From Promethearchaeota archaeon (GTDB taxonomy: Archaea > Asgardarchaeota > Lokiarchaeia > Sigyniarchaeales > Promethearchaeaceae): a DNA stretch of 32,000 bases. Below are positions 5,231-23,982 of this stretch, piece after piece. A program made the position numbers and the translations under genes. The first letter of the stretch is position 1, and each line of letters opens with the position of its first letter. Below the pieces are notes generated by a model, which was not told the DNA's origin, did no database searches, and was given only the letters and a program-made list of their open reading frames with translations. The DNA is taken from assembly GCA_016933055.1 (NCBI GenBank), contig JAFGBS010000009.1, positions 167,590-199,589 on the forward strand. The letters run 5' to 3'.

Positions 5231-6352
5231 TTGCGAGTGTACATAAAAACACCATGCCGATTACATTTTAGCTTAATTGATATGAATGGTTCGCTAAATC
5301 GAGTCGATGGAGGAATAGGTCTTACCCTGAAACAACCTAATTTTACCTTAGAAGTCCTTGATCGTGAATCTCTTATTCATCGAGGAGTAGGGAAGTTTGC
5401 TTGGGAACTTTTACCGGAAAAGCAAATAGTCCTTGAAACAGATTTAGGTCAAGTCGTTTTTTCAATAGAATGTTCAGATTGCCCCAATCCCGATGAATTG
5501 TTAGATACCGTATCAGATATCACAGAAAAATTTATCCACCAGCTCACTGATAAATTCTCGCTCGCTAAATCTGATAAATTCCCTTTGAAATTTACGATAT
5601 GGGATTTTCTGTTTTCCCATATGGGTCTTGGTTCCAAAACTCAAATGGCACTTGCAATTGCATCCTCCATCATAAAGATTCTCGGATTAGATGTACACAT
5701 AGATGTTGAAACACTTACTCAAATGGTGGGGAGAGGAGGGACTTCGGGAATTGGATTTCGCTCTTTTGAAAATGGAGGTTTCATTTTGGATTGCGGTCAT
5801 CGATTTGGGAAAAATCTGGAGAAAGAAAGTTTCTTACCTTCGTCAGCTTCTCATGCTAAACCTGCACGTACAATTTTACGCTATGATTTTCCAGAGGAAT
5901 GGTACGTGCTTGTTGTAATCCTAAACGTTCCAGCGGGTGCATCGAATATGGAGGAAATTAATATCTTCCAAAATCACTGTCCTATCCCAATAGAAGAAGT
6001 CCAGCAAGTGACTCATCATATTTTGATGCAACTACTTCCCGGAATTATCGAGAAGGATTTGGTCAATTTTGGCGAAGCGGTGAATTCCATCCGAAAAATT
6101 GGATTTAAAAAAATCGAAATCGATCTACAACACGATCACATAAAGGAATTAATTAAATTCTTAGAACAAAAATCCTCAAAATGTGTGGGGATGAGTTCAT
6201 TCGGTCCCACGGTATTTTCCATATTTGAATCAAAGCCACTAGCATTGGAGATGCTGGATCATATCAAGAAAAAATTCTCATCGGTTGGATTTACTTCGTA
6301 TATCACTACTGCTAATAATACAGGAGCCGATATTGAGGTAACTCCTCAGTAA
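5231..6352 (+). CDS. mptG: Beta-ribofuranosylaminobenzene 5'-phosphate (beta-RFAP) synthase, GHMP-kinase fold; committed step of methanopterin biosynthesis
   Basis: The N-terminus (M)RVYIKTPCRLHFSLIDMNGSLNRVDGGIGLTL is characteristic of beta-RFAP synthases. GHMP-like motifs MGLGSKTQ and GRGGTSGIG are present. The start is TTG 5231 or GVG-type GTG 5237. Confidence 0.75.
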   Translation: MRVYIKTPCRLHFSLIDMNGSLNRVDGGIGLTLKQPNFTLEVLDRESLIHRGVGKFAWELLPEKQIVLETDLGQVVFSIECSDCPNPDELLDTVSDITEKFIHQLTDKFSLAKSDKFPLKFTIWDFLFSHMGLGSKTQMALAIASSIIKILGLDVHIDVETLTQMVGRGGTSGIGFRSFENGGFILDCGHRFGKNLEKESFLPSSASHAKPARTILRYDFPEEWYVLVVILNVPAGASNMEEINIFQNHCPIPIEEVQQVTHHILMQLLPGIIEKDLVNFGEAVNSIRKIGFKKIEIDLQHDHIKELIKFLEQKSSKCVGMSSFGPTVFSIFESKPLALEMLDHIKKKFSSVGFTSYITTANNTGADIEVTPQ

Positions 6353-6394
6353 ATGAATTAAAAGGAAAAAGAATAGAGAAAATTCGATTACTAA

Positions 6395-7858
6395 TTAAAA
6401 TTGATCTAATTTTTTGGATTGGATCCAAATGTCCTCTAAAACGGGGGCAAACATTTTGATATGTTCATCCAATACTGAGCCCATCCCCGCTACTTGTAGT
6501 TCTCCATCTCCTTTGGAGACAACACAGACAATCATTTCCTCAAAATCTTTATTGAGAGCCCAAACCGTGCCGCGGGGGAAATATCGCAAGTCAACATTGG
6601 TCATTTCCTTTAATGTGTCCACTTTTCCTTTATCAGCAGAACTATTCAAATCAAAATCGGTAGAGATACGAACATTGATACGGGACTTTACTTTTGAGAG
6701 TGCTGTAAAATCAATATCTTTGATCGTGGGACAAATTACATATAACCGCATCTTAACCATGGAAAATGCCTCGTTTATCTGCGCTTTCATAGCTTCTGGT
6801 GATCTTATGAACCATACATCCTTAAAAGTCATCATAGAGGCTGCTTTAGAACGTTCCCAAAATTCCTGCATAGTTTTTTCTGCCAGATCCAATTGTCGGA
6901 CAACTGACATCATGGTATCTTCATCCAGTGTTTCCATTACTTCCTTTTGGAATTGCCCTTTTAATTCATTAATTCCTTTTTGAATAGAATTATTCACTTC
7001 AGTGACGCGTTTTTCTAAATCTCCTAATGTCTCTTCTAATCCTGCTTCGATATTGGTGAAAGAATCTCCTATTCCTGAACTTATCTCTCCAGCTGTATCC
7101 GTAATACTTCCTAATTGCTCAATAACTTGATCTAAGGTGTCTTGTGTAGTTTGGATTACCTTATCTCGGAAGTACCCTGCCATTTCTTCAAATTGGTCCT
7201 TAATAATACGTGAAACTATCTTTTCTGCAAAACTTGACAAGGCTCCCACTCGGAATTGCTTCTCGAATGCTTGCGAGATTTCAGATTTTATCGTTTCCAA
7301 TCGAGATTGCATTCGTCCGAATTCCATTTCAATATCTGGGGGAACTACTTCCTTAAGATTCAAAATAAATAATTTTAAATCATGGAATTTTTGAACCCCT
7401 TTCATTTGATTTTCAAATTTTGAGAGCTGGTCTTTCATTTTCACGGGGAGGGTTTCCTTCATTTCACGAATAAATTCCACATATTCTTGAAATTTGTCTA
7501 AGGATGCAATAGATTTCTCCATCCCGATGAACCTTCCCTCTAAAGCCGTAGGAGCTGCACTCTTCAATCCAGTAATAGATTCCTTAAATTGATGTATTTG
7601 TTTCATTAATGCAGCATATGGGGGTAATGCGGAATAATGGATAGTTTTTCCTGGTACTTCTCTTACCAATCCTTTTTCTACCAAATCTTTCGCGATTTCT
7701 TGCGCCCGTACATCATCTACTCCACCTAAAAGTCCCATTTCACCGGCACTAACTGGTCCTCTTCCAGTGATCCGAAAATAAACCTCTATTTCGTCTGGAG
7801 CTAATCCGATTAATTCGAGGACTTCTTGAGTAGATTTAAACTCTTGTTCACTTGACAT
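6395..7858 (-). CDS. TrmB-type winged-HTH protein with a long central coiled-coil insert and a TrmB-C/PLD-like C-terminal domain
   Basis: The N-terminus VLELIGLAPDEIEVYFRITGRGPVSAGEMGLLGGVDDVRAQEIAKDLVEKGLVREVPGKTIHYSALPP fits the TrmB HTH. Roughly residues 90-340 are heptad-like and E/K/Q-rich. The C-terminus VWFIRSPEAMKAQINEAFSMVKMRLYVICPT...INVRISTDFD resembles the TrmB middle/PLD-like domain. The start lies 8 nt after the stop of the upstream gene. Confidence 0.55.
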   Translation of the reverse strand: MSSEQEFKSTQEVLELIGLAPDEIEVYFRITGRGPVSAGEMGLLGGVDDVRAQEIAKDLVEKGLVREVPGKTIHYSALPPYAALMKQIHQFKESITGLKSAAPTALEGRFIGMEKSIASLDKFQEYVEFIREMKETLPVKMKDQLSKFENQMKGVQKFHDLKLFILNLKEVVPPDIEMEFGRMQSRLETIKSEISQAFEKQFRVGALSSFAEKIVSRIIKDQFEEMAGYFRDKVIQTTQDTLDQVIEQLGSITDTAGEISSGIGDSFTNIEAGLEETLGDLEKRVTEVNNSIQKGINELKGQFQKEVMETLDEDTMMSVVRQLDLAEKTMQEFWERSKAASMMTFKDVWFIRSPEAMKAQINEAFSMVKMRLYVICPTIKDIDFTALSKVKSRINVRISTDFDLNSSADKGKVDTLKEMTNVDLRYFPRGTVWALNKDFEEMIVCVVSKGDGELQVAGMGSVLDEHIKMFAPVLEDIWIQSKKLDQF

Positions 7859-7866
7859 GTTTTATT

Positions 7867-9015
7867 TCACTTCCCTTTTTTTTCGTGAAAATCATAATAT
7901 ACTTTTTCTAGATAATCCAAATGTTTGATCGCAGTCTCTTTTTTAATGATTCCCTCTTCTTGATCCTTACGGATATTCTCTAACATATATTCAGGGTAAA
8001 ATGGTCGAACTGCAACATCCGTGAGTAAAAATACCCACTCGACATTTTTGTTATCTTTAATTATTTTTAAAATATTGTCTTTCTCCATTACCGATAGCAA
8101 ATGAGCAACATCTAAGGCACCTTCATCTGTTCCTTTGGGAATCTTATTCAACGGGTAAGGTCTATCTCGGAATAGTGCTAAATAATCAAATTTATCTGGA
8201 TTAGTCAAATTGCGAGCAAGAACCAGATTATCTTCTTCTGTTGGCTTATAGTCTGCGAAAAATTTCTTCACTTCTGAAAGATATTTTTCGGCGAGATTTG
8301 GGTTTGGTAAGTTATTTTTAGCGTTATCGATGAGATCAAACGCTGGAGCTCGAAATATTGTAAAATCTGAGATGAGGAAAAGAAAAACTTCCGCTACTCC
8401 TTCAATCCAATCTTGTTTTACTAAACCACTTTTTACAAATGGATCTAGTGTGATATCAAGATTGGTAATGATTTTCTTTAATGACTCTTCCAGCAATGCT
8501 TGGAGTTGTTTCTTCGAGTAGGCACGTTCCCTAAGTAATTCTAGGATTTTTCTCCCTTTTTGACTATAATAAATCTGAGCTAGTAATTGCTCCTTCGTCA
8601 AATATTTCAATCTTTCCAATAAGAACAGTGCATTTTTCAGATACTGTTTAAGTTTCTTCACTACTTCATAATTTGCACTGATACTTGTACCGAGTTGGCG
8701 GAGGTATTTCAAGATCGCTTCATTTATATCTTTAATTACAGCCTCTCCGAACATATCTGGATCCTCACCCAATTCCAATATGAGATTAATCATAAAGGGG
8801 GTAGGGGAATCCATGCCTGTGAAGTAGGATGCAACGTTGGACTGAACTTTTTCTAGACGGACCAAGACATTTCCCGCTTCTGCAACACCAGTAATATGAG
8901 CATAAAATACTCGCATCATATCATCTAGATCCACTTTCAATTCTTCGGGATAATTCAACTGCACAATTAAACCATCAGTATCGGTCCATTTTGTAACTAC
9001 AAATCCTTTAGGCAT
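7867..9015 (-). CDS. Hypothetical cytoplasmic protein: N-terminal alpha/beta domain (roadblock/longin-like pattern) followed by helical, winged-helix-like segments
   Basis: 382 aa with no signal peptide or TM helix. The first ~110 aa (MPKGFVVTKWTDTDGLIVQLNYPE...NVLVRLEKVQSNVASYF...FMINLILELGEDPDMF...) alternate beta and alpha propensity. GRKILELLRERAYSKKQLQALLEES...LVKQDW and a second C-terminal segment look like wH units. Stop/start spacing to the upstream paralog is TAA-A-ATG. Confidence 0.5.
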   Translation of the reverse strand: MPKGFVVTKWTDTDGLIVQLNYPEELKVDLDDMMRVFYAHITGVAEAGNVLVRLEKVQSNVASYFTGMDSPTPFMINLILELGEDPDMFGEAVIKDINEAILKYLRQLGTSISANYEVVKKLKQYLKNALFLLERLKYLTKEQLLAQIYYSQKGRKILELLRERAYSKKQLQALLEESLKKIITNLDITLDPFVKSGLVKQDWIEGVAEVFLFLISDFTIFRAPAFDLIDNAKNNLPNPNLAEKYLSEVKKFFADYKPTEEDNLVLARNLTNPDKFDYLALFRDRPYPLNKIPKGTDEGALDVAHLLSVMEKDNILKIIKDNKNVEWVFLLTDVAVRPFYPEYMLENIRKDQEEGIIKKETAIKHLDYLEKVYYDFHEKKGK

Positions 9016-9016
9016 T

Positions 9017-10633
9017 TTATTTGCTCCCTTCTATTTTCTTTTCTGGTATAGTTTTTTCTTCTGGGGGTGACATATCTTCATAACCCGACATGTCTTTTTT
9101 TGGAGCAGCTTTCTCTGAAGGCTGCGATGGTGCTTTTCTACTAGACTTATCTAGTAGACGTTTTTCTTCTTCAAAAATATTTCTTCCAATTGTGTTGGAG
9201 TCTTTTGTTTGCAATGGCTTGGTAGCCCTTCCATGTCGGATTTTTCGTCGTAGTGACTTTACAGTTCTAACTTGTGCGGGGAATTTAAAAATACCTTCAT
9301 ACAATCCGATTCCTGTAGCTAAGGCAGCAAGCAATCCTGCAGAACTATAAATATAAGGTTGCAAGTTCGTTGGAGGTGGGTCTGGCAATATAACTATATA
9401 TGTTAGTTTGAGCACTACGTTATCTATGTAAATTCCAATCGGAGAATCTAATTCAAAATTATCCCCAATATACATTTGAATAGATACGGTAATATTTTCA
9501 TCCAAACTAATTAGTGATGTAACATTGTATCCATCAGGATTAGCAACTTGGTAAATATCTGTGGCGGCACTGATTTTGACCGTTTCATAGAGTTTCTTAT
9601 TACTGACAAACAATCGAAATTCCGAGTTTGGAGAAGCATCTGTTGGCCATGGGGTATCAATTTTGTACGAAAATTCAAAGGACGCGTCTCGAATCAAAAC
9701 ATTCGTGCTATTAAGTGAATTCCCGATTCCATCCCAAGAAGCTGTTGTTAATTGGTTCATTTTCTTTTGATACGTGAACGATAAACTCACATTTTTGATA
9801 TATATGTCATCAAAAAAGTCTTGATCGCTATTTCTATTATCCTCACAAAATATTCTGATCCCCACGGTTATTGTAAAGTTAAAATCATCCGTATTTAACA
9901 CTGAAGTAAGAAAGAATTTCAGATTTTCTTCGGTGACAGTTGTTATTAATGTATCCTCCATTTGGTCGAATGTCCCCGCACTATCTTTACCGAGATCAGA
10001 AGTTTGATTATATGCAATTTCATACACTTTTTGCTTTGGTAAATCTGAAATTAGTAAATAATACCTAATGTAATCGTAATCTGCCGCTTGATGGACAGCA
10101 TCTCCAGGAACTTCAATTCCTCCAAAATCAGGATTGTTTGCATGAACGGTTGCATTGATTACAGCACTTACGGATGCAGAAGTGATTGTATAATCACTCA
10201 TATTATTCGGCATGCTAACATTATAATCAAAATGAACAGAAGGTGATTGGTCTGAACGCTGACCATAAGTGTCTCCCCAGTAATGAGAAACATAAAATCC
10301 TTCTGAAGTCACATCATAATCATCTGGCAAATCTGGATAGGCTATATTGTTTACTGCTGTCCATGTATCAGAATTCAAAGGTGCATTTAGCTCCCATTCC
10401 AATTCCTCTCCAAGTAAATTATAAAGTGCCTCTCCTGAACTCGAACTAGTAGTAATATCAGATTCATCTCCTGCTATAGAAGTTGACCATTGAGAACTGA
10501 TAGGATCATCAAAACCACTTATCCAAACTACATCTTCATAAAGTATTTCCCGAGCAGAAACTAAAGGAATTGTGCTTAAAAGACTAATCACACATAAAAT
10601 GCCTATGCTGGTAATTAATAGGGATCTTTTCAT
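9017..10633 (-). CDS. Surface glycoprotein paralog 1: signal peptide, two jelly-roll/CBM-like modules, Pro-rich stalk, one TM helix, conserved basic cytoplasmic motif, low-complexity tail
   Basis: Signal peptide MKRSLLITSIGILCVISLLSTIPLVSA|RE. I counted 9 N-x-S/T sequons by hand. Stalk PDPPPTN, TM YIYSSAGLLAALATGIGLY, then EGIFKFPAQVRTVKSLRRKIRHGRATKPL and a 64-aa K/E/S/P-rich tail. The start overlaps the stop of paralog 2 (ATGA at 10630-10633). Confidence 0.8.
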   Translation of the reverse strand: MKRSLLITSIGILCVISLLSTIPLVSAREILYEDVVWISGFDDPISSQWSTSIAGDESDITTSSSSGEALYNLLGEELEWELNAPLNSDTWTAVNNIAYPDLPDDYDVTSEGFYVSHYWGDTYGQRSDQSPSVHFDYNVSMPNNMSDYTITSASVSAVINATVHANNPDFGGIEVPGDAVHQAADYDYIRYYLLISDLPKQKVYEIAYNQTSDLGKDSAGTFDQMEDTLITTVTEENLKFFLTSVLNTDDFNFTITVGIRIFCEDNRNSDQDFFDDIYIKNVSLSFTYQKKMNQLTTASWDGIGNSLNSTNVLIRDASFEFSYKIDTPWPTDASPNSEFRLFVSNKKLYETVKISAATDIYQVANPDGYNVTSLISLDENITVSIQMYIGDNFELDSPIGIYIDNVVLKLTYIVILPDPPPTNLQPYIYSSAGLLAALATGIGLYEGIFKFPAQVRTVKSLRRKIRHGRATKPLQTKDSNTIGRNIFEEEKRLLDKSSRKAPSQPSEKAAPKKDMSGYEDMSPPEEKTIPEKKIEGSK

Positions 10634-12396
10634 TGGTTTCCTTCCCCCTTTGAGGTAATATCAAGATTAGTATCGGTTTTTGACGTATCAATAGATTTAG
10701 GTGGTTTGGGTTCGTTAATTTTATCTGCTTCAACATAGGACTTTGAGGAAGCTTCTTTACTTGCAGCGGTACTTTTTGTAGAAGATGTTTTCAGTTTTTT
10801 CTGAAGTTGTGTTTTTTCTGAAGCGTGTATCTCATTACTAATTGAGCTAGCATCCTTTTTTGTTAAGGGTTTCGTGCCTCGCCCCGTCCGTATTCTTCTC
10901 TTTAAATTACGTATGTGACGAACTTGAGCTGGATATTTGAAATGGCCCTCATAAGCACCAAATCCTACCCCTAATAATACCACTCCTCCCATTAACCCGT
11001 AAAGATATGGCCAATTACTCTCAGGTGGAGGAGCTGGAGGTTCAATTAATACATAGGCTACCCACAATTGTACATTTGTTATAGAAACTGTAATATTATC
11101 TGCAAGCGCAAATTCATCTGCCAGATATAATTCAATTGAAAGTGTAATATTCACTTCCTTTTGAAGTAATTTCGTTACATTAAACCCTTCAGCCTTTGAT
11201 TCTTGAAATGAAAAAGTTCCAGAACTTAATTTAATGGTTTCGTTATGCATATTTCCATTAATTCGAATCCGTAACTCCGAATTTGGGGAGGACAGCTCCC
11301 AAGGTGTGTCGATCTTGAAATCGTATTTAACAATTCCATTTGTGATTTGTGCATTATCCTCAACGATGGAATTTCCTACTTGGCTCCAAGAAGCAGATGC
11401 GTCACGATTGATTATTTTTTCATAACTGAATGTTAAATTATAAGATTTAATTAGTAAATCATCCCATGAATCATCATCGTTTAAAAAATTATCTTCGCAC
11501 CATATTTTCATTCCCATGGTAAAGTTAAAATTTCGATTATCCGTGGAAAGAACATCAGAAAGAAAAAATATTAAACTCTCTTCTGGAACAGTGAACAAAT
11601 AAGTATCTGTTAAGCTATCATATGTTGTTGTCAAATATTCAGCATCCGAGGTATATACATCTTGTCCGAGAGGATAAGTATATTGTCCTGTTTGATACTG
11701 GGCGATTTCATATGATTTTGTATTGGTAAGATCAGAAACTAATGAATAAAATCTTACATAATCGTAAGTCGAGAATTGAGGTGTTGTCGCCTGTGATGGT
11801 GGAACATCCGCCACGTTAGTATAATCCCCATAAGCTTCAACTCCACCATTTCCATTACCGTAACCGTTATTGGCTTTAACAGTAGCGTTCACAATTACAG
11901 AGACATTTGCTGATGTAATTCTATAATCCGACATGTCAACAGGCATAGATATATTTCTAGTCCAATGAACTGAGGTTAATTGACCTGCTTCGGCTTCCGT
12001 CCAGAAATGTGTAACATACATACCTTCAGATGTGATATCATAATCGTCAGGGAATGTAGTTAATTCTGGATTTTGTACTACCGTCCAATTATCAGTATGT
12101 GGTGGATCTTCTGCGATCGAGAATGTGCGATAATCTCCCACTACCTTGAAATCAGCTTGCCCCGAAGTCGGGCTTTCTGCTATCAAATCAGTCAAATCTC
12201 CATTAACCGAACTTATCCATTCGGGATCAATCGGAGCAATAAAACCGGGATTAACCATCCATTCCTTATCGGTTCCATCTTGAGCATTTAGTAAAGAGAT
12301 ATGGGAAAAAAACGCAATAACGATAAAGAAAACTATTAATCGATAATATTTCTTTTTTATTGTAAACCCCTCTGTAGGTTTTGTTATCTTAATCAC
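10630..12396 (-). CDS. Surface glycoprotein paralog 2 (same architecture as 9017..10633)
   Basis: GTG start, hydrophobic signal/anchor YRLIVFFIVIAFFSHISLLNA|QDG, and 10 sequons by hand count. Blocks shared with paralog 1 include DDYDITSEGMYVTHFW, MSDYRITSANVSVIVNATV, YEIA, FFLSDVLSTD, NFNFT, WCEDN, LTFSYEK, KIDTPW and SPNSE. Stalk EPPAPPPESN, one TM helix, then YEGHFKYPAQVRHIRNLKRRIRTGRGTKPL and a 77-aa S/K/T-rich tail. Confidence 0.8.
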   Translation of the reverse strand: MIKITKPTEGFTIKKKYYRLIVFFIVIAFFSHISLLNAQDGTDKEWMVNPGFIAPIDPEWISSVNGDLTDLIAESPTSGQADFKVVGDYRTFSIAEDPPHTDNWTVVQNPELTTFPDDYDITSEGMYVTHFWTEAEAGQLTSVHWTRNISMPVDMSDYRITSANVSVIVNATVKANNGYGNGNGGVEAYGDYTNVADVPPSQATTPQFSTYDYVRFYSLVSDLTNTKSYEIAQYQTGQYTYPLGQDVYTSDAEYLTTTYDSLTDTYLFTVPEESLIFFLSDVLSTDNRNFNFTMGMKIWCEDNFLNDDDSWDDLLIKSYNLTFSYEKIINRDASASWSQVGNSIVEDNAQITNGIVKYDFKIDTPWELSSPNSELRIRINGNMHNETIKLSSGTFSFQESKAEGFNVTKLLQKEVNITLSIELYLADEFALADNITVSITNVQLWVAYVLIEPPAPPPESNWPYLYGLMGGVVLLGVGFGAYEGHFKYPAQVRHIRNLKRRIRTGRGTKPLTKKDASSISNEIHASEKTQLQKKLKTSSTKSTAASKEASSKSYVEADKINEPKPPKSIDTSKTDTNLDITSKGEGNQ

Positions 12397-12407
12397 ATTA
12401 TCTTTGT

Positions 12408-12423
12408 TTTAAATTAATTTAAA
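12408..12423 (-). promoter_or_regulatory. 16-nt perfect A/T palindrome TTTAAATTAATTTAAA at the TATA-box position upstream of paralog 2
   Basis: It lies 12-27 nt upstream of the GTG start at 12396 on the minus strand. It is AT-only, so a chance occurrence in this genome is plausible. Confidence 0.25.
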
Positions 12424-12556
12424 TTTTCGTTAGAGAACTCATAACTCTTCAAAAGAGATCGGGAATTATTTGAAATAATCACTCTATATTAAGATATTAT
12501 CAAAAATGATCATAAAAGAAATAAGTCGACCTTTAAAATTAAGGTATGAATAACTT

Positions 12557-13894
12557 TTACTCTACAGTGTTATGTTCCTTGTTCCGTGGATTGTACAAAA
12601 TTTTTGCCGTGTTCAATCGATCAGATTTATGTTCTCTAAATACCCCTCCGATCCTTACTGATAAATCTTCAAAACTATACTTGAATTTAATTAACTCCCA
12701 CAATTTCAAAGCTACGAACCAGAATCCGACTACGATCATTAAATACGAAATGTTCATGATGACATTGCCCATTACCGCATCAAATTCTCCACTTAACTCC
12801 CCAAAGCGTGAGTGAAAGATGTTACTCCACAAAATATTCCATAAAGCTTCTAAACAATAAATCGTCAACGAAAGCATTCCGAAGCGACGTATAAAGATAC
12901 TTCTTTTTACCGTTTTCTCACCAGATTCAAAATCAAATTTTCTGAAAAACCACGGGATCCACAATAACATCAGCCCGAGATTTATAAATGAGAGATCTGG
13001 GGGTATGTTCTTGTATCTAAATAAGTAAGTAATAATATCTGTAGAAATAGTAAATAGGTGATATCCTACTAGTAATAATCCAACAATGAGGAAAATCAAT
13101 CCCAGTTTTCTGCAATAGCGCTTAACGGCTTTATAAGGACGATCTTCCGCTAAAAAAATACCGATCACAATTCCAATAAGTGCATATCCTGCATAAGGCA
13201 GTACACAGTGAAGGGATCCTGCTATAAAAGAGAGGAAAAATGCTGGTACATAATACAATCTACCCATTTCCAAATAAGATAAAAATAAGGGATTTAACCA
13301 TTCCCATAGTGCCTTAGAAATGGTTAACCACACAATAGCAAATATTGTGAGATTACGTATATTTATGTTTTTTGATTCCTCAAACCGATCTTTCCGCCAC
13401 ATGAATAATAAAGTAAAACAGGAAATTAATCCTGAACTTGCAATCATAGATAACGCATCGGCTTTAAAGAAGATTTCAATCTCCGGCAGACTAAATGCTC
13501 TTTTCTGAATTGAACCAGTGAAAAGGGAGTACAATTGATGATCACCCGTTAGAGCAGGAGTTGCCATAACAAATAATCCCATGTAGACAAAATGAAAAAG
13601 CAAGATCAATAAATTATTTATGATAGATGGTCTCACACTTCTCCAGATAGAATTACCTGCATCTTTTCGGTGGTAAACGATATAAGAATTTGCAATACCA
13701 GTAATTAATGCGAATAATCCTGCCCAAGTGCCTAAATAAAGCATTGGGGCAAATATGACTAGGGGTGAACGTGGAAGATATTCTACTGCATTTCCTTCAC
13801 CGAGAAAAATTCCGAACACGATACCATGTGCAAAAACGACCCCAAAAATAGCTAAGCCTCGAATAAAATCGATACTTAACAGTCGTTTAGACAT
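12557..13894 (-). CDS. Multi-pass membrane protein, acyltransferase-3 / DUF1624 (HGSNAT-like) type
   Basis: The N-terminus MSKRLLSIDFIRGLAIFGVVFAHG matches the R..S.D..RG.A...V..H signature of membrane O-/N-acyltransferases. About 10 or more hydrophobic helices follow. Confidence 0.55.
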   Translation of the reverse strand: MSKRLLSIDFIRGLAIFGVVFAHGIVFGIFLGEGNAVEYLPRSPLVIFAPMLYLGTWAGLFALITGIANSYIVYHRKDAGNSIWRSVRPSIINNLLILLFHFVYMGLFVMATPALTGDHQLYSLFTGSIQKRAFSLPEIEIFFKADALSMIASSGLISCFTLLFMWRKDRFEESKNINIRNLTIFAIVWLTISKALWEWLNPLFLSYLEMGRLYYVPAFFLSFIAGSLHCVLPYAGYALIGIVIGIFLAEDRPYKAVKRYCRKLGLIFLIVGLLLVGYHLFTISTDIITYLFRYKNIPPDLSFINLGLMLLWIPWFFRKFDFESGEKTVKRSIFIRRFGMLSLTIYCLEALWNILWSNIFHSRFGELSGEFDAVMGNVIMNISYLMIVVGFWFVALKLWELIKFKYSFEDLSVRIGGVFREHKSDRLNTAKILYNPRNKEHNTVE

Positions 13895-13973: not shown

Positions 13974-15542
13974 TTAAAGCGTTTTTGTGGATTTCACGTT
14001 AAGCTCGTCTATATTTAGTCTCATTTTAGTTAACATATTCACTTGATCTGCTCGTGAGGGGATATTTAGTTTCTTTATTCTTGCACCTCTTCGGATTTTT
14101 CTTCTTATGCTACGTATTTTTCTCACATGGACAGGAAATTTAAGAATTCCTTGATACAAGCTAAATACAATAAAAAGTACTGCTATTCCTCCAGCAAGGC
14201 CTGCTGTCAAGGGTAAATAATTGGGTGGTGGTTCTGGAATCGGATCAGGGGTGAATATCATATAAGAGATCTTAAAATAGATGTTATCGATGAATATTGT
14301 GTAATTAAGCGTATTCTCAAATTCATCCGCAATATATAATTGGAATGAAACTGCCACGCTCAAGTTTGGAGTCAATAAATCCTTTAAAGCTCTTCCACTA
14401 AATTCAATTGTTTGATATATTGGAGTAAAACTATCCAATTTTACCGTTTCACTGTATTTTCTGCCATTAATAACGGTTTGAATCTCACTATTAGGGGATG
14501 CGGAAGTCCATAACGAATTGATTTTGTAATCAAAACTCAGTGACGCATTTGTGATAGTTGTGCAATTAACGACATCACCAAGTTGACTATATGAGATGGA
14601 ACTAAATTGGTCAATTTTTTTCTCATAGGTAAAGGATAAGCTGAAATTTTTGATACGTAGATCGTACCATGTATCTCTGTCGTAGGTAGGGTAATTATCT
14701 TCTGCATAAGCATTAATTTCGAGAATAATCGAGAAGTTTGTGTAATCGTATTGTAAAACTTTTGTGAGATAAAGGATTAGGAGATCTTGGTCAACAGGAA
14801 CTAATTCGGTATCGTTTAAATATACTCTTTCACCATACGTATTTGGTCCTACAGAACCCGATATGTCTTTCCCTAGGGTTGTGGTTTTATTATATGCAAT
14901 CCGATAATTTTCAATGTTGTTTGGATCTGTAACCGTGATTGAAAACCGTGCGTAATCTCCAACACCAATATATCCACTACTCAATAACACATCACCTGGT
15001 GTTTCTAAGTTTGTATCTCCACTCCCATTTACAATTGCACTAACTGAGGCTGATGTAATCACATAATCACTCATATTAACAGGAAGTTCAACTGAATGCT
15101 CCCATGTCATACTGGGGAAATTTCTGGTTTGGTTTCCCGTTACACCGAAATAATTTGTGACGGGTTCTTCTAGGTACTCATGCCCAATATAGCAGCCATT
15201 TTCATCAATACCATAGATATCGGGTAAAATAAACTCAGGATTGGGGATTTCAGTCCAATTATCGGAGATCGGCGGATTTGCATTGAAGACATAATCTCCC
15301 TCCTCACCAATTAAAACGAATGTGGCTTCTCCTCCTGTTATTTGTCCATCCAAATCTTGATCATCCCCTGAAGTTTCGATTACCCAGAAAGAAGAATTAT
15401 CGAATCCATTATTTCGTAACCATTCAATATCTGTGTAATAATCTTCTCGTGCTGATACAGAAACAATTTTAGAAGAGACAATCGAGGATAAAATCAAGAT
15501 TGATATAATTATTACTAATCTCTTGATCCACTTCATTTTCAA
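13974..15542 (-). CDS. Surface glycoprotein paralog 3 (more divergent member of the same family)
   Basis: The signal peptide ends VSVSA|RE, as in paralog 1. I counted 13 sequons by hand. Shared blocks are NMSDYVITSASVSAIVN, RIAYNKT, NFS, AEDN, RIKNFSLSFTYEKK, SPNSE and FIDNIYFKISY. Stalk PDPIPEPPPN, one TM helix, then YQGILKFPVHVRKIRSIRRKIRRGARIKKL and a 30-aa tail. Confidence 0.8.
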   Translation of the reverse strand: MKMKWIKRLVIIISILILSSIVSSKIVSVSAREDYYTDIEWLRNNGFDNSSFWVIETSGDDQDLDGQITGGEATFVLIGEEGDYVFNANPPISDNWTEIPNPEFILPDIYGIDENGCYIGHEYLEEPVTNYFGVTGNQTRNFPSMTWEHSVELPVNMSDYVITSASVSAIVNGSGDTNLETPGDVLLSSGYIGVGDYARFSITVTDPNNIENYRIAYNKTTTLGKDISGSVGPNTYGERVYLNDTELVPVDQDLLILYLTKVLQYDYTNFSIILEINAYAEDNYPTYDRDTWYDLRIKNFSLSFTYEKKIDQFSSISYSQLGDVVNCTTITNASLSFDYKINSLWTSASPNSEIQTVINGRKYSETVKLDSFTPIYQTIEFSGRALKDLLTPNLSVAVSFQLYIADEFENTLNYTIFIDNIYFKISYMIFTPDPIPEPPPNYLPLTAGLAGGIAVLFIVFSLYQGILKFPVHVRKIRSIRRKIRRGARIKKLNIPSRADQVNMLTKMRLNIDELNVKSTKTL

Positions 15543-15643
15543 CTTAATTCAGATCCCTTTGAATGATATGATAATTTTGGATATTGATTCTATATATATC
15601 TTAACTTATACATTACATTAACTATCAAATATTTGTGAATACC

Positions 15644-16039
15644 ATGAATGAAGAAACTATAGCTGATAGAAAATTCCCTGAAGATTTTACTTCTAAAGAG
15701 CGCGCAATTTTTGAGGTCGGCATCAAACTTGGAGCGCTTTATCATATCGCAATGGGTATGCCCATTTCAAAAGATCCAATGACGATTGCATCCATCGAGA
15801 CCGCTCTTGCTAATTCTATTAAATCTCAACCCTATGTCACTGAGATGAAAGTGAAATTAAACGTGGACAATATTATGGGGTCAAAATCCCATGAATTTGA
15901 TTACTCTGAAATCACATCTTCGACTCTAAACGCAGAAATCCGACTTAAGTATAACAATATAGAAGTGTTAGGAATGTTGGAATGGAATGAAGAACTCAAC
16001 TACCCGCTTATGTTCGTCAAGAAGATACGCTCAGACTAG
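15644..16039 (+). CDS. Probable archaeal-type dihydroneopterin aldolase (MptD-like)
   Basis: About 131 aa. KERAIFEVGIKLGALYHIAMGMPIS resembles the conserved FE.GIKLGAL.H core I recall for the archaeal DHNA/MptD family. The H4MPT gene context supports this. The track start is GTG 15635, but ATG 15644 is more likely. Confidence 0.45.
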   Translation: MNEETIADRKFPEDFTSKERAIFEVGIKLGALYHIAMGMPISKDPMTIASIETALANSIKSQPYVTEMKVKLNVDNIMGSKSHEFDYSEITSSTLNAEIRLKYNNIEVLGMLEWNEELNYPLMFVKKIRSD

Positions 16040-16776
16040 GATTTTATTTCTTCCAAAAACTTATCAACCATATCGCAGACCTTTAACGCTCGCTGAGATG
16101 CAGAGAATCGACGAATATCATATTGAAAATCCCTTACTCTATCGATTAATTTTTGAATATCATTTCGGGAATTTTGCTGTTTTTGGATAGCAGGAATTTT
16201 TGATGCGTACACAATAGCTTCTAAAGCTAAATTGTCTCCTCGATTAACTGGTTGAGATTGTTTGAATGATTGATACATCTCCTTTACAAGTACTTGAAAA
16301 GTTACCTTAAATTCAGGGTGTTCCTCACTAGAATGAGGATTTTTCAGAAATATAGGTTTATTTCGTATATTGATTTCTCCAAGAATGAGAATTTGGGATT
16401 GTTTTAGGAACGCATATCCTTTGTGAATATCCAAGTAAGATTGATCCATCTCTTCAACATCGATACCGGCATGTTCTCCTCTTAACGCTGCCAGAGCAAA
16501 ATATTCGACATCATCGGTGAAATTGATGGTTATAAATTTGACATTCGGGTTCATTAACAGCTCAAAAGTATCTGTATCGGGATATGGTTTTAGGAACATT
16601 ACCTTATTACCGCTAAATCTTATTCCCATAGCCGAAGCATTGAATCTCTGTTGATTTGGCCATTGAATAACTACAATTGATTCATATAATTTACCATTTT
16701 CGAAGGGGAAATCTATTTCGTCCATGCTATCAATGTTAATTTGAATAAAGTCTTTATTTTTGTTATGTGCACCCAT
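16036..16776 (-). CDS. DUF447-like protein (FMN-binding split-barrel-like; a family that accompanies H4MPT-linked C1 genes)
   Basis: LYESIVVIQW...FNASAMGIRFSGNKVMFLKPYPDTDTFELL...ITINFTDDVEYF fits the remembered DUF447 pattern (YE.I..T...NaAPMG....l.l.p..gs.T..NL....vN..dD...f). This is memory-based, not a search result. Confidence 0.45.
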   Translation of the reverse strand: MGAHNKNKDFIQINIDSMDEIDFPFENGKLYESIVVIQWPNQQRFNASAMGIRFSGNKVMFLKPYPDTDTFELLMNPNVKFITINFTDDVEYFALAALRGEHAGIDVEEMDQSYLDIHKGYAFLKQSQILILGEINIRNKPIFLKNPHSSEEHPEFKVTFQVLVKEMYQSFKQSQPVNRGDNLALEAIVYASKIPAIQKQQNSRNDIQKLIDRVRDFQYDIRRFSASQRALKVCDMVDKFLEEIKS

Positions 16777-16813
16777 ATCAATCTATAAGAAAACGTTTAT
16801 TTTCTATATTGCT

Positions 16814-16820
16814 AAGGTGG
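16814..16820 (+). promoter_or_regulatory. Shine-Dalgarno-like site AAGGTGG
   Basis: It lies 4 nt upstream of the ATG at 16825 and is complementary to the conserved 3' end of 16S rRNA. Confidence 0.5.
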
Positions 16821-16824
16821 TATT

Positions 16825-17895
16825 ATGGTTCGTGTTGTCGGTGTAGATCCGGGTTCTGCGAGTTGGGATTTTGTTGGGATGGATGAAGATGGATCATTCT
16901 TTCTGGATCACTCTATTCCGACCAAACAAATTCAAAAACATCCTGAACTCTTCTTAAACCTTATAGAAACAACTGATTTTGATATAATGTCTGCACCCTC
17001 AGGATTTGGACTTCCCTTAAAAAAAATTGAAGATTTGAAAGAAGAGGATTTCTTTTTTGCACTCTTAAAGAAAAATCCCGAAAAAGGTATGATCGTGGGA
17101 CTAGGGCAAATTCTGAAAATACTACAAGAACAAAAAGTAAATGGATATTTTTTACCCAGTGTGAAGCACCTTTCTACGGTTCCAAGACATAAAAAAGTGA
17201 ATAAAATTGATTTAGGAACTGCAGATAAATTATGTACCGTCGTAGTAGGTATTCGCAATCAAATGGAGGATTATAACATCTCTTGTGAGGAGTCCTCTTT
17301 CATCATGGTTGAAATGGGTTATGGTTTTAATGCCGTCATTGCAATTGAAAATGGACAAATAACTGATGGAATTGGAGGATCTCAACTAATGGGTTTCCGT
17401 GCGGTAGGTTCCATTGATGCTGAAATAGCTTATTTGATGGGAAAGATCAAGAAAAAAGATGTGTATCGAGGTGGAGTGAGCTCAATAGCGGGATATTTTG
17501 ATATGAGAGCTGAAGAGCTCTTATTATTATCAAAAAAAGATAGAAAAACAAAATTGGCAATGGATGCATTTTATGATAACTTGATCAAATCCGTGTACGC
17601 TATCTCGAGCTCCTTTTCATCGAGGGATGCTATTAAAGAAATTTTATTTGCAGGAAGGCTTGCAAAAATTGATGCTTTAATTCAACCTTTGAAAGAAAAA
17701 TTATCTTTTATTGCCCCCACCAAAGTTATGCGATCATATGTATCAATTTCCAAAGAATCTGCCCAAGGCGCTGCATTTATAGCAAATGGATTATCGGGTG
17801 GAAGATTTGCAGACATCGTTGACAATTTGAAAATTCGAGAATCATCTGGCAGTATTTTGGATGATATCTATCTACCGTTGGAACAGCGAATGTAA
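16825..17895 (+). CDS. ASKHA-fold (acetate/sugar kinase-Hsp70-actin) protein, DUF1464-like
   Basis: The N-terminal phosphate-1 motif is MVRVVGVDPGSASWDFVG. Later glycine motifs are GTADKL and DGIGGSQLMG. At 356 aa the size fits DUF1464 and BcrAD/BadFG-type ATPases. Confidence 0.5.
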   Translation: MVRVVGVDPGSASWDFVGMDEDGSFFLDHSIPTKQIQKHPELFLNLIETTDFDIMSAPSGFGLPLKKIEDLKEEDFFFALLKKNPEKGMIVGLGQILKILQEQKVNGYFLPSVKHLSTVPRHKKVNKIDLGTADKLCTVVVGIRNQMEDYNISCEESSFIMVEMGYGFNAVIAIENGQITDGIGGSQLMGFRAVGSIDAEIAYLMGKIKKKDVYRGGVSSIAGYFDMRAEELLLLSKKDRKTKLAMDAFYDNLIKSVYAISSSFSSRDAIKEILFAGRLAKIDALIQPLKEKLSFIAPTKVMRSYVSISKESAQGAAFIANGLSGGRFADIVDNLKIRESSGSILDDIYLPLEQRM

Positions 17896-17977
17896 AATAG
17901 GTTTTATATGAGAGATTTTTACTTATTCTTTAATAGATCAAATCCTATATTTACTCCACATATAGAGATGCATACAG

Positions 17978-19672
17978 ATGGCTACCTCCTTACGTATCTT
18001 ATTAATTACGGGTGAACAGAGTTTTAACGAGATTCAGCAAATTGCGAATAAAGTGAATGGAGAAAAGGATCTAAATATTCACTGTGAAATTCGGATGGTA
18101 TCCGTAGATGTTTCTGCATTCATCACTCCCGAACATGTTACTGAATTGTGCATTCCTTTCACCGAAGAGAATTATGATTTCGCATTAATTCCGGGTTTCA
18201 CTACATGGGATTCAAGTATTTTGAAAGATAAAATTCAGATACCCGTGTACAAAGGTACACGGTTTTCTGGGGATTTATACGATTTACTCTGTCACATAAG
18301 AGAACTTAAGTTACCTACTAAAAAAGCTGCAGATCATTTACTCCAAACTAGAAGTCGACAGAAAATTCAGGAATATGTTGAAAATCTTGGTGAAACCTTT
18401 TTCACGCAAGGACAACCAATATCAGGATCTCGAGTATTGCAATTTGTCACACCTAATGGACGAAGAATCTTAACAGGAGGAGATTTTCCACCATTATTGT
18501 TCGCGGAAATAGTGGATGCTCCAAAATTATCCGAATCCGAAATCATGGAAAAAGTTCATTATTATATGGATTCGGGAGCAAATGTGATTGATATCGGGAT
18601 GATCTTTGGACAATCCCATCCAGATCTTATTCGAAAAATCGTTCCGAAAATAAAAAACACATGCGATATTTTAGTTAGCATAGACAGTGTGCGCATAGAT
18701 GAAATTGTGGCCGGGATTGAGTCGGATGTGGATATAATTCTTAGCATTGATGGAGAAAACATCGATTCATTTTTAGAGTATTCGGAAAATCATCAAATAA
18801 AACGAGATCTTGGAATAGTATTAATTCCACTTGATGGTCCTAATCATACGGCTATAGAAAATCCCACCGCAAAAGCCGAATTTCTCATATCTTTAGCAAA
18901 AAACCTACGCAATCACGGGTTTAACAATATATTTTATGATTCCCTTTTAAAAAACCCTATTTCACCGGGATTAATGGATTCTTTGCACTGTTATTACATC
19001 CACAATGAAATTGTACAACAGCAACCCGAAATATACTATCCTACCTTTATGGGATTACATAATGTATTTGAGCTTGTCGATGCGGATAGCAGTGGAATGA
19101 TCAGCTTACTATCCTTAATTGCATCAGAATTGAATTGTGCCGGAATCTTTACGACAGAATTTAGTCCAAAAACACTAGGTTCCATACGAGAGACTCGTAA
19201 AAGCATTGATTTTGCTTATTTTGCAAAAATCTCCAAATCACCCCCCACAAGCTTAGGACTGGATGCATTTTTTGTGAAATCTAAACGAAGGTCCCTCTCA
19301 AGAACTGAGGAACCGAGTATAATCCTCAACCTACATACAAACGAAATTTCCCAAGAAAATCTCAAAGAATTGATATCACCCGATGATAAATTTATCCACG
19401 ACACTACGGGGTACTTCAAAATCTACATAAATCACTTAACTCGCTTAATTGAAGTAATTTTTATACCCTTTGATGAGACAAAAAAGCGATTAAACCTAAC
19501 TGGACCCTTACTTTTAAAAGGACGATCTGCAGAGCATTTGTATAAAACCATTCATCAATTGGGTTTAGTGACGGAAATCTCTCATGCATTTTATCTTGGT
19601 AAAGAATTAAGCAAAGCTGAATACGCATTACATGTCAATGCTCCGTATTTCGAGGATACTGAATTAGAATAA
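17978..19672 (+). CDS. Dihydropteroate-synthase-related protein with a DUF4346-like C-terminal domain (archaeal H4MPT-type)
   Basis: 564 aa. The central pterin-binding-like segment is YYMDSGANVIDIGMIFG...ILVSIDS. The C-terminus GYFKIYINH...LKGRSAEHLYKTIHQLGLVTEISHAFYLGKELSKAEYAL matches the remembered DUF4346 signature. Confidence 0.6.
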   Translation: MATSLRILLITGEQSFNEIQQIANKVNGEKDLNIHCEIRMVSVDVSAFITPEHVTELCIPFTEENYDFALIPGFTTWDSSILKDKIQIPVYKGTRFSGDLYDLLCHIRELKLPTKKAADHLLQTRSRQKIQEYVENLGETFFTQGQPISGSRVLQFVTPNGRRILTGGDFPPLLFAEIVDAPKLSESEIMEKVHYYMDSGANVIDIGMIFGQSHPDLIRKIVPKIKNTCDILVSIDSVRIDEIVAGIESDVDIILSIDGENIDSFLEYSENHQIKRDLGIVLIPLDGPNHTAIENPTAKAEFLISLAKNLRNHGFNNIFYDSLLKNPISPGLMDSLHCYYIHNEIVQQQPEIYYPTFMGLHNVFELVDADSSGMISLLSLIASELNCAGIFTTEFSPKTLGSIRETRKSIDFAYFAKISKSPPTSLGLDAFFVKSKRRSLSRTEEPSIILNLHTNEISQENLKELISPDDKFIHDTTGYFKIYINHLTRLIEVIFIPFDETKKRLNLTGPLLLKGRSAEHLYKTIHQLGLVTEISHAFYLGKELSKAEYALHVNAPYFEDTELE

Positions 19673-22533: not shown

Positions 22534-23982
22534 TTAACGATCATTATATTCCTTCATAAACTGTTCAAGGTTCCAATCTTTTTCCATAAATTTCTGTAAT
22601 CCCGAGGAATCCATTGGACCGACCACTACATAACAATTTGCATCATCTTCGATTGCACCACTAAGACGAGCCGCCATTCCAGGAATTACTAAAACGCGGT
22701 GATCTACTGCATCAAACACTTTAAAATCATTAACTGCTTCAGCAACTTTATCGGAGCTTAATTGACCTCCTGCTACACCTGCTTCTATCCCCAATCCTTC
22801 AGTATCTACAACTAAAAGATAGGAATCGATGTGAGCGTCCTTTATGTCTTGTTCCACGGGGATCTTAGTCATTCGATAATTACTCGTCATGAAAATCGGA
22901 GAATTTCTACTCGGACTTCCAATCTCAAAGAATCCTGCATCCACTCGGGGATAGATACGGGGATCGGTGAAAATATTCTGCCTATAGGTCATCAACGCCA
23001 AAGGAACCCATACCTCTTCTTCCGTCCGACCTGAATGGATTATTACTAAACTTACATCCACACTCAGCATCATAATTGCAGTTAATGCTTCTTTATACTG
23101 AACAGCGAAAAGTTCCTCTTCTGATGTGGGGTTATCAATGGCCCAAATGGATGCAGGAACTCCCACGGTAGGATGCTTTGTCAACTCGCTCCCATCTCTG
23201 ATGGAACTATACCGAATTTGCATTATACGATTTAAAGTTTCAGTCGAATACCCAGCACCCATGATAGTTCCGGGATCTAATGCCAATTCTGTTACTCCCA
23301 TATCTTCAAGAGAATGTGCTATGGAAACTAACTCATCCAAATCAGTGGAAAAGCAAACAACTGGGAGATTCAGTTCTATGGCACATTTACCCACATCCTT
23401 CCAATTTTCCTTGGTTGCTGCATAAAGAAGCGGTTTTTTTTCTTTAATCTTTATAGCAGCACTTTTGAGCACCTCGGGATTAAAAGAACATAATATTAAT
23501 GGAAGATTTACGGAATCGGATACTAATTTTACCGTCTTTGCATACATATCGGGATTGTTGGAAGAACTACGAATTGCGATCGCATCCAAGGTCAAGTTTT
23601 CTCCGATTCGGAAGACAACAAACTCATCTAGATGCTTGACTACATCCATTAGGTTCGGCATTTCATCGTAGACTTCGACTGCAATCGCAGTTGGATTGAA
23701 AAACGTCAAATCATGTCGGTGGAATGCTTCTTCGCCACCAATACGGCATAAATTCTTACCAGCTCCGAATTCTAGTGGTAGTTGAGGTGGTTTAATGAGT
23801 TCTTCTATTTGTTTTCTCTTCTTTGGGGGGAGATGTTTTGGAGGACAATCTTCTAATTTTACTCGACGCTCTAATAAATCCGTTACAAACTCCATACATG
23901 TGTTACGACCACACTCTTTACAATTGCTACGATCAAGTAATTTATAAATTTGGAGGGGGGATGCTCTTTTTACCAATTCCAT
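22534..23982 (-). CDS. cdhE: Acetyl-CoA decarbonylase/synthase gamma subunit (corrinoid Fe-S protein large subunit, CdhE/AcsC)
   Basis: The N-terminus ASPLQIYKLLDRSNCKECGRNTCMEFVTDLLERRVKLEDCPP carries the CX2CX4C...C cluster motif characteristic of CdhE/AcsC. The 482-aa length fits. Confidence 0.85.
   Translation of the reverse strand: MELVKRASPLQIYKLLDRSNCKECGRNTCMEFVTDLLERRVKLEDCPPKHLPPKKRKQIEELIKPPQLPLEFGAGKNLCRIGGEEAFHRHDLTFFNPTAIAVEVYDEMPNLMDVVKHLDEFVVFRIGENLTLDAIAIRSSSNNPDMYAKTVKLVSDSVNLPLILCSFNPEVLKSAAIKIKEKKPLLYAATKENWKDVGKCAIELNLPVVCFSTDLDELVSIAHSLEDMGVTELALDPGTIMGAGYSTETLNRIMQIRYSSIRDGSELTKHPTVGVPASIWAIDNPTSEEELFAVQYKEALTAIMMLSVDVSLVIIHSGRTEEEVWVPLALMTYRQNIFTDPRIYPRVDAGFFEIGSPSRNSPIFMTSNYRMTKIPVEQDIKDAHIDSYLLVVDTEGLGIEAGVAGGQLSSDKVAEAVNDFKVFDAVDHRVLVIPGMAARLSGAIEDDANCYVVVGPMDSSGLQKFMEKDWNLEQFMKEYNDR

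Follow-up and report, generated by a model that had tools for sequence, protein, structure and literature searches.

The closest described relatives of the protein treated here are regulators of the TrmB family. In TrmB and TrmBL1 (structures 3qph and 2f5t) a winged helix-turn-helix (wHTH) is followed by a dimerisation helix and by an effector part, whose first subdomain has a PLD-like fold and whose second one, a beta-barrel, holds six of the seven sugar contacts. TrmBL2 from Thermococcales (5bpd and 5box) consists of 264 amino acids (aa) arranged as a wHTH, one amphipathic dimerising helix of ~35 residues and a single PLD-like domain with no sugar-binding barrel, and it is known as an abundant non-specific DNA binder (PMC4877046). 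The present work deals with a gene located on the reverse strand, at positions 6395..7858, of a stretch of 32,000 nucleotides (nt) from Promethearchaeota archaeon (assembly GCA_016933055.1, contig JAFGBS010000009.1, positions 167,590 to 199,589); this whole stretch is called the window. On sequence and predicted structure, the 487-aa product keeps the domain order of those regulators around a helical region of ~260 residues. It is encoded at the end of an operon for surface glycoproteins, in a linkage that is conserved across Asgard genomes, and it is possible that the old regulator now works as a scaffold or adaptor. The gene and its parts are the following:

6395..7858, (-) strand: gene of the TrmB-derived protein with wHTH, helical region and PLD-like domain (open reading frame, database match, alignments)
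7619..7837, (-) strand: TrmB-type wHTH, residues 8-80 (Pfam, PDB profile, model)
7289..7603, (-) strand: three tandem 35-residue helical repeats, residues 86-120, 121-155 and 156-190
6830..7243, (-) strand: helical segment with 11-residue (3.67) periodicity, residues 206-343 (Fourier analysis, autocorrelation)
6398..6829, (-) strand: C-terminal PLD-like alpha/beta domain without HKD motif, residues 344-487 (Foldseek, model)

The open reading frame is considered a real gene because its product has an exact database match, a hypothetical protein from a metagenome-assembled genome (MAG) of Lokiarchaeota, and because at least 288 homologs were retrieved by database search. Three parts are distinguished in the product: the wHTH (residues 8-80), the helical region (81-343) and the PLD-like domain (344-487). 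The N-terminal ~85 residues had been assigned to the TrmB helix-turn-helix in an earlier reading made from the sequence alone (the sequence-only reading), and this assignment is confirmed, since the Pfam family TrmB (PF01978) matches residues 15-80 with 29 bits, above its cut-off of 25.6, and also matches 13 of the 13 members of a diverse alignment. The protein is therefore a member of the TrmB family. Related to this, the search of the PDB with a profile of 120 homologs recovered TrmB (3qph, E 1e-4) as well as TrmBL2, in alignments that covered only the first ~95 residues.

As regards the C-terminal part, the last ~135 residues have no sequence-level match in Pfam, and the C-terminal TrmB-type domain (PF11495) was matched neither by the window protein nor by the 13 members at E values up to 1. 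The resemblance of the last ~140 residues to a TrmB or PLD-like domain, proposed from the letters, is found at the level of the fold. An AlphaFold model was built from 120 sequences (mean predicted local distance difference test, pLDDT, 63.6); the model from 13 sequences (pLDDT 56) was not used, and the gain of the larger alignment over it lies in the end domains only. When the whole model was compared with the PDB by Foldseek, the top match was TrmBL2 (5bpd, E 1e-8), in an alignment spanning both end domains, and TrmB (2f5t) was found at E 5.6e-4, over 142 alignment columns against a chain of 233 residues. The C-terminal domain also retrieved NucT, Zucchini, FAM83, phospholipase D, MITD1 and the first subdomain of the TrmB sugar domain. 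The predicted layout consists of a wHTH at residues 8-77, helices at 81-118, 121-153, 158-202, 205-251 and 256-341, and an alpha/beta domain at 354-480; the pLDDT is ~70-87 in the wHTH, 45-65 in the helices, 67-86 in residues 350-440 and 60-73 beyond them to the C-terminus. The only histidine of the PLD-like domain is H466, placed in the last helix, H-x-K-x4-D is not present in the sequence and HIKMFAPVLED does not fit it; the domain would therefore be non-catalytic, as in the TrmB family.

Pfam, the AlphaFold model and Foldseek thus agree on the three-part architecture that had been proposed, in which a long helical region joins a TrmB wHTH to a PLD-like domain. Judged by sequence and model, the protein descends from a regulator of the TrmB/TrmBL2 type, with the ancestral order of wHTH, putative dimerisation helix and PLD-like domain kept. 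With TrmB and TrmBL1 it shares the Pfam family of the wHTH and the fold of the first effector subdomain, and the residues after its wHTH align with their dimerisation helix. The beta-barrel subdomain, in contrast, is missing, since the PLD-like domain forms the end of the protein, and the family has no linkage to genes of sugar transport or glycolysis. The likeness to TrmBL2 includes the lack of the sugar-binding barrel, the PGK motif of the wing and the Arg that opens the recognition helix. On the other hand, TrmBL2 is little more than half as long (264 against 487 aa), with one short helix in place of the ~260-residue region; its similarity to the window protein at sequence level is marginal (E 0.03), Tyr50 is not conserved and the recognition helix is acidic in the family of the window protein, and TrmBL2 has no linkage to surface-protein operons. 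The NCBIfam equivalogs of TrmB (NF040851) and TrmBL2 (NF041141) gave 22.4 bits against a cut-off of 600 and 13.9 bits against a cut-off of 530, respectively.

Residues 81-343 are predicted as wholly helical by both models. A coiled-coil insert of about 250 residues, far longer than a dimerisation helix, had been described in this region. The length holds in that the helical residues are ~260 in number, but ~30 of them correspond to TrmB's own dimerisation helix, so that the net insertion relative to TrmB is ~230 residues. As to a coiled coil, the indications differ along the region: the best-register heptad score of residues 86-335 has a mean of 0.42 vs 0.27 +/- 0.03 in 200 shuffles, but the family-averaged hydrophobicity, analysed by Fourier transform, has a period of 3.5 in residues 86-168 only and one of 3.67 (11/3) in residues 206-343, and the enrichment in E, K, Q and L is modest (37% of the middle region vs 31% and 24% of the flanks). 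The three peptides that had been quoted as examples correspond to residues 145-170, 182-202 and 274-311.

The first half of the region is made of three tandem repeats of 35 residues, each of them with a conserved central proline (P103, P138 and P173). The repeats align in register in profile-profile comparisons with hhalign (P 4e-7, 9e-5 and 6.5e-4), whereas neighbouring 35-residue segments used as controls gave P > 0.1; a lag of 35 gives the top autocorrelation in this half, and the helix breaks of the model coincide with the borders of the repeats. The zipper of the TrmB dimerisation helix is formed by F81 and L88 (PMC4158304), which align with the invariant L84 and F91 of the 487-aa protein, and the helix 81-118 of the model comes directly after the wing of the wHTH. 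The match of the zipper residues argues that the first repeat continues the ancestral dimerisation helix, and the second and third repeats look like duplications of it.

In residues 206-343 the top autocorrelation is at a lag of 11, and the glycines G250, G257, G264, G273 and G295 are conserved; conserved Pro and Gly residues break up the helices of the middle region. On this basis the middle region appears not as one uniform coiled coil but as 35-residue repeats followed by ~135 residues of hendecad periodicity. The 11-residue periodicity of these ~135 residues is shared with exchangeable apolipoproteins, ApoLp-III and other 11-mer amphipathic-helix proteins, and weak sub-threshold Pfam matches to ApoLp-III, Apolipoprotein A1/A4/E, Baculo_PEP_C and Perilipin recur in the family. 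The scores for the apolipoprotein and ApoLp-III families (PF01442 and PF07464) were 19.9 bits vs a cut-off of 36.3 and 15.3 bits vs a cut-off of 90, and the likeness probably stems from periodicity and composition rather than from common descent. Besides, the helical region is conserved like the folded domains, as the mean column majority is 0.77 vs 0.81 and the pairwise identity 76-82% vs 76-86%; to judge from these alignments, such conservation would be unusual for a mere spacer.

The gene stands in a compact run with the genes of a soluble partner and of two surface glycoproteins, and a third glycoprotein paralog is found further upstream:

6353..6394, (-) strand: T-rich tract after the stop codon of the 487-aa gene and before a convergent gene (sequence, layout of open reading frames)
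7867..9015, (-) strand: partner gene, 382-aa soluble orphan protein, separated from the downstream 487-aa gene by 8 nt
9017..10633, (-) strand: type-I surface glycoprotein paralog, 538 aa (signal peptide, ectodomain, transmembrane helix, tail)
9020..9286, (-) strand: tail of the 538-aa glycoprotein, start KFPAQVRTVKSLRRKIRHGRATKPL, net charge +10
10630..12396, (-) strand: type-I surface glycoprotein paralog, 588 aa, with a 4-nt overlap with the next gene
10633..10938, (-) strand: tail of the 588-aa glycoprotein, start KYPAQVRHIRNLKRRIRTGRGTKPL, net charge +12
12397..12556, (-) strand: A/T-rich intergenic region of 160 nt upstream of the run of four genes (sequence, gene gaps)
13974..15542, (-) strand: third glycoprotein paralog, 522 aa, with a 445-aa membrane protein between it and the others
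13977..14141, (-) strand: tail of the 522-aa glycoprotein, start KFPVHVRKIRSIRRKIRRGARIKKL, net charge +14

The order of the run is 588, 538, 382 and 487 aa, with successive gaps of -4, 1 and 8 nt. These gaps, followed by the T-rich tract and the convergent gene, agree with the earlier statement that the 487-aa gene is the last one of the glycoprotein operon. The T-rich tract is the likely end of the transcript, and the A/T-rich region at 12397..12556 is a candidate promoter.

The partner belongs to a family of near-fixed length (~375 aa), whose members are 58-65% identical to the 382-aa protein of the window and are all named 'hypothetical'. No Pfam domain was found in this family and nothing significant in the PDB profile search, in which the best match was a myosin-Va tail with E 0.13. 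A relationship between the partner and the TrmB-like protein was considered and rejected on comparison of the two. By eye, residues 1 to ~110 of the partner follow the order beta-beta-alpha-beta-beta-beta-alpha, and residues ~140-215 have the look of a winged helix, for which only scattered sub-threshold matches were obtained. One homolog of the partner (P0125, 543 aa) has a K/E-rich C-terminal extension.

The 522-, 588- and 538-aa proteins are paralogs, each of them with a signal peptide, an acidic ectodomain (isoelectric point, pI, ~4.05), one transmembrane helix and a basic tail, and with more N-X-S/T sequons than expected. The ectodomain gave nothing significant in PDB and Pfam profile searches. 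For the tail of the 538-aa protein, positions Y445, P452, V455, R456 and G468 are invariant in the glycoprotein alignment. The large proteins encoded upstream of TrmB-like genes share their end, a transmembrane helix and then K[YF]PPxVRKIRKLKKK[VI][RK]KGKKTKPI..KREEII, and this polybasic motif was found 72 times, in 49 of 85 sources. Where two genomes have partners and TrmB-like proteins of 69-80% identity, the identity of their ectodomains is only 37-52%, and the tail motif is better conserved than the ectodomains. The charges are complementary: the tails have net charges of +10 to +14, the TrmB-like protein has -18 (pI 5.0) and the partner -6.

A survey with one genome per species gave 162 relatives of the protein, and 80 loci were kept. 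The partner is encoded directly upstream and on the same strand in 62 of the 67 loci with enough flanking sequence, at a median gap of ~27 nt, and elsewhere in the locus in the remaining five, which makes it the most constant neighbour of the TrmB-like gene. Of the 54 loci that extend 4 kb or more upstream, 47 contain glycoprotein homologs. The linkage is kept despite an altered gene order in a Helarchaeota locus (L072) and in loci of L. ossiferum (L079) and P. syntrophicum (L084), and this survival of gene-order changes is good evidence of functional coupling. The tie to the glycoproteins advanced in the sequence-only reading is well supported in this way, being conserved across Asgard genomes, resistant to rearrangement and accompanied by tails with a conserved polybasic motif. 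Homologs in unrelated contexts with a sugar-regulon function, which would have spoken against it, were not seen among these loci, and the sugar-binding subdomain is missing.

The 80 loci belong without exception to Asgard MAGs or to records whose title says no more than 'uncultured archaeon'. In a search of 1.84 billion representatives, 482 proteins were found at E values up to 1e-3, and every named member that was looked up is from Asgard archaea; among the relatives detected, the family is thus restricted to this group. The combination of wHTH, helical region and PLD-like domain that was sought in other archaea together with its neighbours is found in Asgard genomes and linked to surface proteins. 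At least three subfamilies share the architecture. The subfamily of the window protein has a length of ~640 aa in most genomes; the second one (~660 aa) is only 16-18% identical to it, and the third one (~730-900 aa) includes NEF87_000855 of L. ossiferum and DSAG12_03151 of P. syntrophicum. As indicated by locus-tag prefixes, single MAGs carry several subfamilies, and each of the paralogous subfamilies is accompanied by a partner-like gene and by genes for large surface proteins. In the paralogous modules of L. ossiferum and P. syntrophicum the tails are long and rich in K, P and S instead of carrying the polybasic motif. In the proteome of P. syntrophicum, a 'TrmB family transcriptional regulator' (DSAG12_03376) ranks tenth by identification score, with a normalised spectral abundance factor (NSAF) of 0.15 (PMC11284389); it is no more than a possible member of this family.

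In most members the PLD-like domain is followed by a Pro-rich linker and then by a conserved helical domain of ~85 residues, with the motif ..LQDDILEKKGFSAVLRQIR..KINFWRSKL, which is common to the three subfamilies (for example homologs P0011, P0039, P0043 and P0056). This C-terminal domain of the long homologs gave nothing significant in PDB and Pfam profile searches. Both the linker and the domain are absent from the window protein and from its close relatives, which have 487-495 aa. The convergent gene begins only 42 nt away from the stop codon, and no such domain is encoded elsewhere in the window; this is a lineage-specific loss.

The reading that we favour, tentatively and with somewhat less than even confidence, is that of a repurposed TrmB scaffold or adaptor which acts with the partner on the glycoprotein tails. 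According to it, the single dimerisation helix of a TrmBL2-like regulator would have grown into the helical region of ~260 residues, by tripling of a 35-residue unit and addition of the hendecad segment, and in most lineages also of the linker and the terminal domain. The 487-aa protein would no longer be mainly a sequence-specific DNA binder, but an elongated, probably dimeric and acidic adaptor or scaffold of the cytoplasm. Together with the co-transcribed partner of ~375 aa, it would engage the polybasic juxtamembrane tails of the type-I glycoproteins, and the fast-evolving ectodomains would be coupled in this way to a conserved assembly inside the cell. We infer from the features described above that the protein would dimerise, lie near the membrane, bind physically to the tails and the partner, and have lost DNA binding.

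Some systems offer parallels for such a role. In FAM83 and MITD1, PLD folds without catalytic activity serve as scaffolds or bind membranes. The PLD-type folds of MITD1 and of the FAM83 DUF1669 domain likewise lack the HKD motif and serve in membrane or protein binding, whereas their sequences have no detectable relationship to that of the window domain; as this domain is most simply inherited from the TrmB family, the likeness is an analogy of use at most. The module also resembles transmembrane receptors with tail-binding adaptors (integrin with talin) and regulators held at the membrane (Mlc with PtsG), in that its surface proteins cross the membrane once and have a short, conserved tail, which varies less than the ectodomain, and that conserved soluble proteins are inherited with them; no homology exists, and the analogy is purely functional.

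The winged helix bears on whether the protein still binds DNA. Tyr50 has been singled out as the most important residue for DNA recognition by TrmB (PMC4158304); its equivalent in the 487-aa protein is Q53, at a position which is variable across the family, and TrmB Asp51 maps to a conserved Glu. The net charge of the wHTH is -4, and that of the recognition helix is -1 to -5 in all subfamilies vs +2 in TrmB and TrmBL2, the latter value being counted by hand on fragments. These features bear on a second explanation, in which the protein would be a DNA-binding repressor or activator of its own operon, and its availability would depend on reversible capture by the tails, with or without the partner as an intermediary; transcription would then respond to what happens at the surface, as in the case of Mlc and PtsG. 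This explanation accounts for the retention of the TrmB wHTH with its conserved R51, K62 and PGK wing, as well as for the position of the gene at the end of the operon to be controlled, and the conserved tails fit it too, with the partner as a possible bridge. The loss of the recognition Tyr and the acidic recognition helix, in which the subfamily of ~660 aa has almost no basic residue, count against it, and sequestration would not need parts as elaborate as the helical region, the linker and the C-terminal domain. No obvious operator motif was shared among 56 upstream regions, in a crude survey with unreliable operon starts that carries no weight either way. We regard this explanation as rather unlikely. 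Given the lost Tyr, the acidic helix and the uniform conservation, the evidence leans to a scaffold over a regulator controlled by the tails.

The position of the gene also fits a third explanation, an ordinary local autoregulator of the TrmB family whose long dimerisation helix is incidental and whose regulon is formed by the glycoproteins. The wHTH family membership and the TrmBL2-like fold agree with it, and TrmB regulators are habitually encoded beside their targets (PMC4158304). It leaves unexplained, however, the ever-present 375-aa partner, the conservation of the 260-residue helical region at the level of the end domains, the duplication of whole modules and the acidic recognition helix without the Tyr; the absence of the sugar-binding subdomain and the NCBIfam equivalog scores (22 and 14 bits vs 600 and 530) also stand in its way, and we hold it to be unlikely. 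A further explanation starts from TrmBL2 as the closest fold, itself a non-specific DNA binder: a chromatin protein or DNA-membrane tether, in which the wHTH would bind DNA non-specifically and the rest would anchor the nucleoid to the tails of membrane proteins. The 'TrmB family transcriptional regulator' that ranks tenth in the P. syntrophicum proteome would speak for it if it were a member of this family. The tether appears very improbable, as the wHTH is acidic and nothing ties the family to chromatin.

Several points weigh against the scaffold reading itself. Polybasic juxtamembrane segments may follow from the positive-inside rule. The likeness to apolipoproteins is below every Pfam cut-off in the members scanned, and the pLDDT of the helices in the model is low (45-65). 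Little or no variation is seen at R51, K62 and the P69-G70-K71 wing, which correspond to R48, K59 and P66-G67-K68 of TrmBL2. MreA, a regulator of the TrmB family, binds DNA without the Tyr (PMC4158304), and for this reason the evidence against DNA binding by the 487-aa protein is suggestive, not decisive. As TrmB regulators sit by the operons they control, the place of the gene, taken by itself, would suit a local regulator of the ordinary kind. Finally, the neighbouring genes of a short-chain dehydrogenase/reductase (SDR) and a cupin are equally conserved between the same genomes, and the conservation is not exceptional.

This last point follows from the identities between loci. An exceptional conservation of the TrmB-like protein, suggested by the 52-59% identity that it shows among MAGs whose labels name different Asgard phyla, was rejected in view of the flanking genes. 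Between three MAGs labelled as Promethearchaeota, Hodarchaeota and Thorarchaeota, the Roadblock proteins are 94-98% identical, the SDR proteins 75-78% and the TrmB-like proteins 69-76%, and the cupin adjoining the module is 76% identical in the one MAG pair in which both loci have it. The identities of Roadblock, SDR and cupin indicate that the phylum labels overstate the divergence, and the TrmB-like protein evolves, by these sequences, at about the rate of its enzyme neighbours and not unusually slowly.

Among known organisms, Asgard archaea are those most closely related to eukaryotes, and little is understood of the molecular basis of the elaborate surfaces and protrusions that their cells bear. 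The conserved co-encoding of glycoproteins, partner and TrmB-like protein suggests an undescribed link of the cell surface with the cell interior, and the module is a concrete and testable candidate for an outside-to-inside connection in these cells. If the scaffold reading is right, it would be a clear case of a transcription-factor fold rebuilt by repeat expansion into a structural or signalling protein. A wider reading, which we consider improbable, goes further and sees in the module a transmembrane coupling device specific to Asgard archaea, with the tails held to a cytoplasmic plaque of the partner and a dimeric TrmB-derived rod. In that case, the wHTH, the Pro-rich linker and the C-terminal domain would reach DNA, the cytoskeleton or small-GTPase machinery, and the device would be a prokaryotic counterpart of receptor-adaptor systems or envelope-chromatin tethers, based on a recycled transcription factor and present as several paralogous modules per genome. 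Existing annotation calls the three components of the module 'hypothetical' or 'TrmB regulator' and nothing more, and the literature on Asgard TrmB-like, coiled-coil and surface proteins yielded no description of the family, its architecture or its gene context.

As for the wider surroundings, the glycoprotein operon is set within genes for pterin or methanopterin-type biosynthesis (1598-2578, 5231-6352 and 15635-19672), which include a folE2-type GTP cyclohydrolase, a GHMP-kinase-like protein, dihydroneopterin aldolase, DUF447, DUF1464 and a pterin-binding protein. Genes for the delta subunit of carbon monoxide dehydrogenase (CODH)/acetyl-CoA synthase and for a glycoside hydrolase of family GH32 are found at 22534-23982 and 24103-25476; this neighbourhood is an ordinary chromosomal context, with no sign of mobile elements. 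One more feature lies between the glycoprotein paralogs:

12557-13894, (-) strand: 445-aa multi-pass membrane protein with no Pfam match

A homolog of this membrane protein was seen only in the closest relative (L005), which places it outside the conserved module. In other genomes, an open reading frame of ~990 aa lies near the module of L. ossiferum (L079, 1214-4189), followed immediately by a second one of 375 aa; proteins of about the same length as the former are encoded near the modules of loci L002 (14479 to the end) and L003 (15430-18405), with faint MarR/HTH and TPR matches. Loci L001, L003 and L004 have Roadblock/LC7 and SDR genes before the module and a cupin gene after it, and in L003 the gene of an Arf/Rag-like small GTPase also precedes the module.

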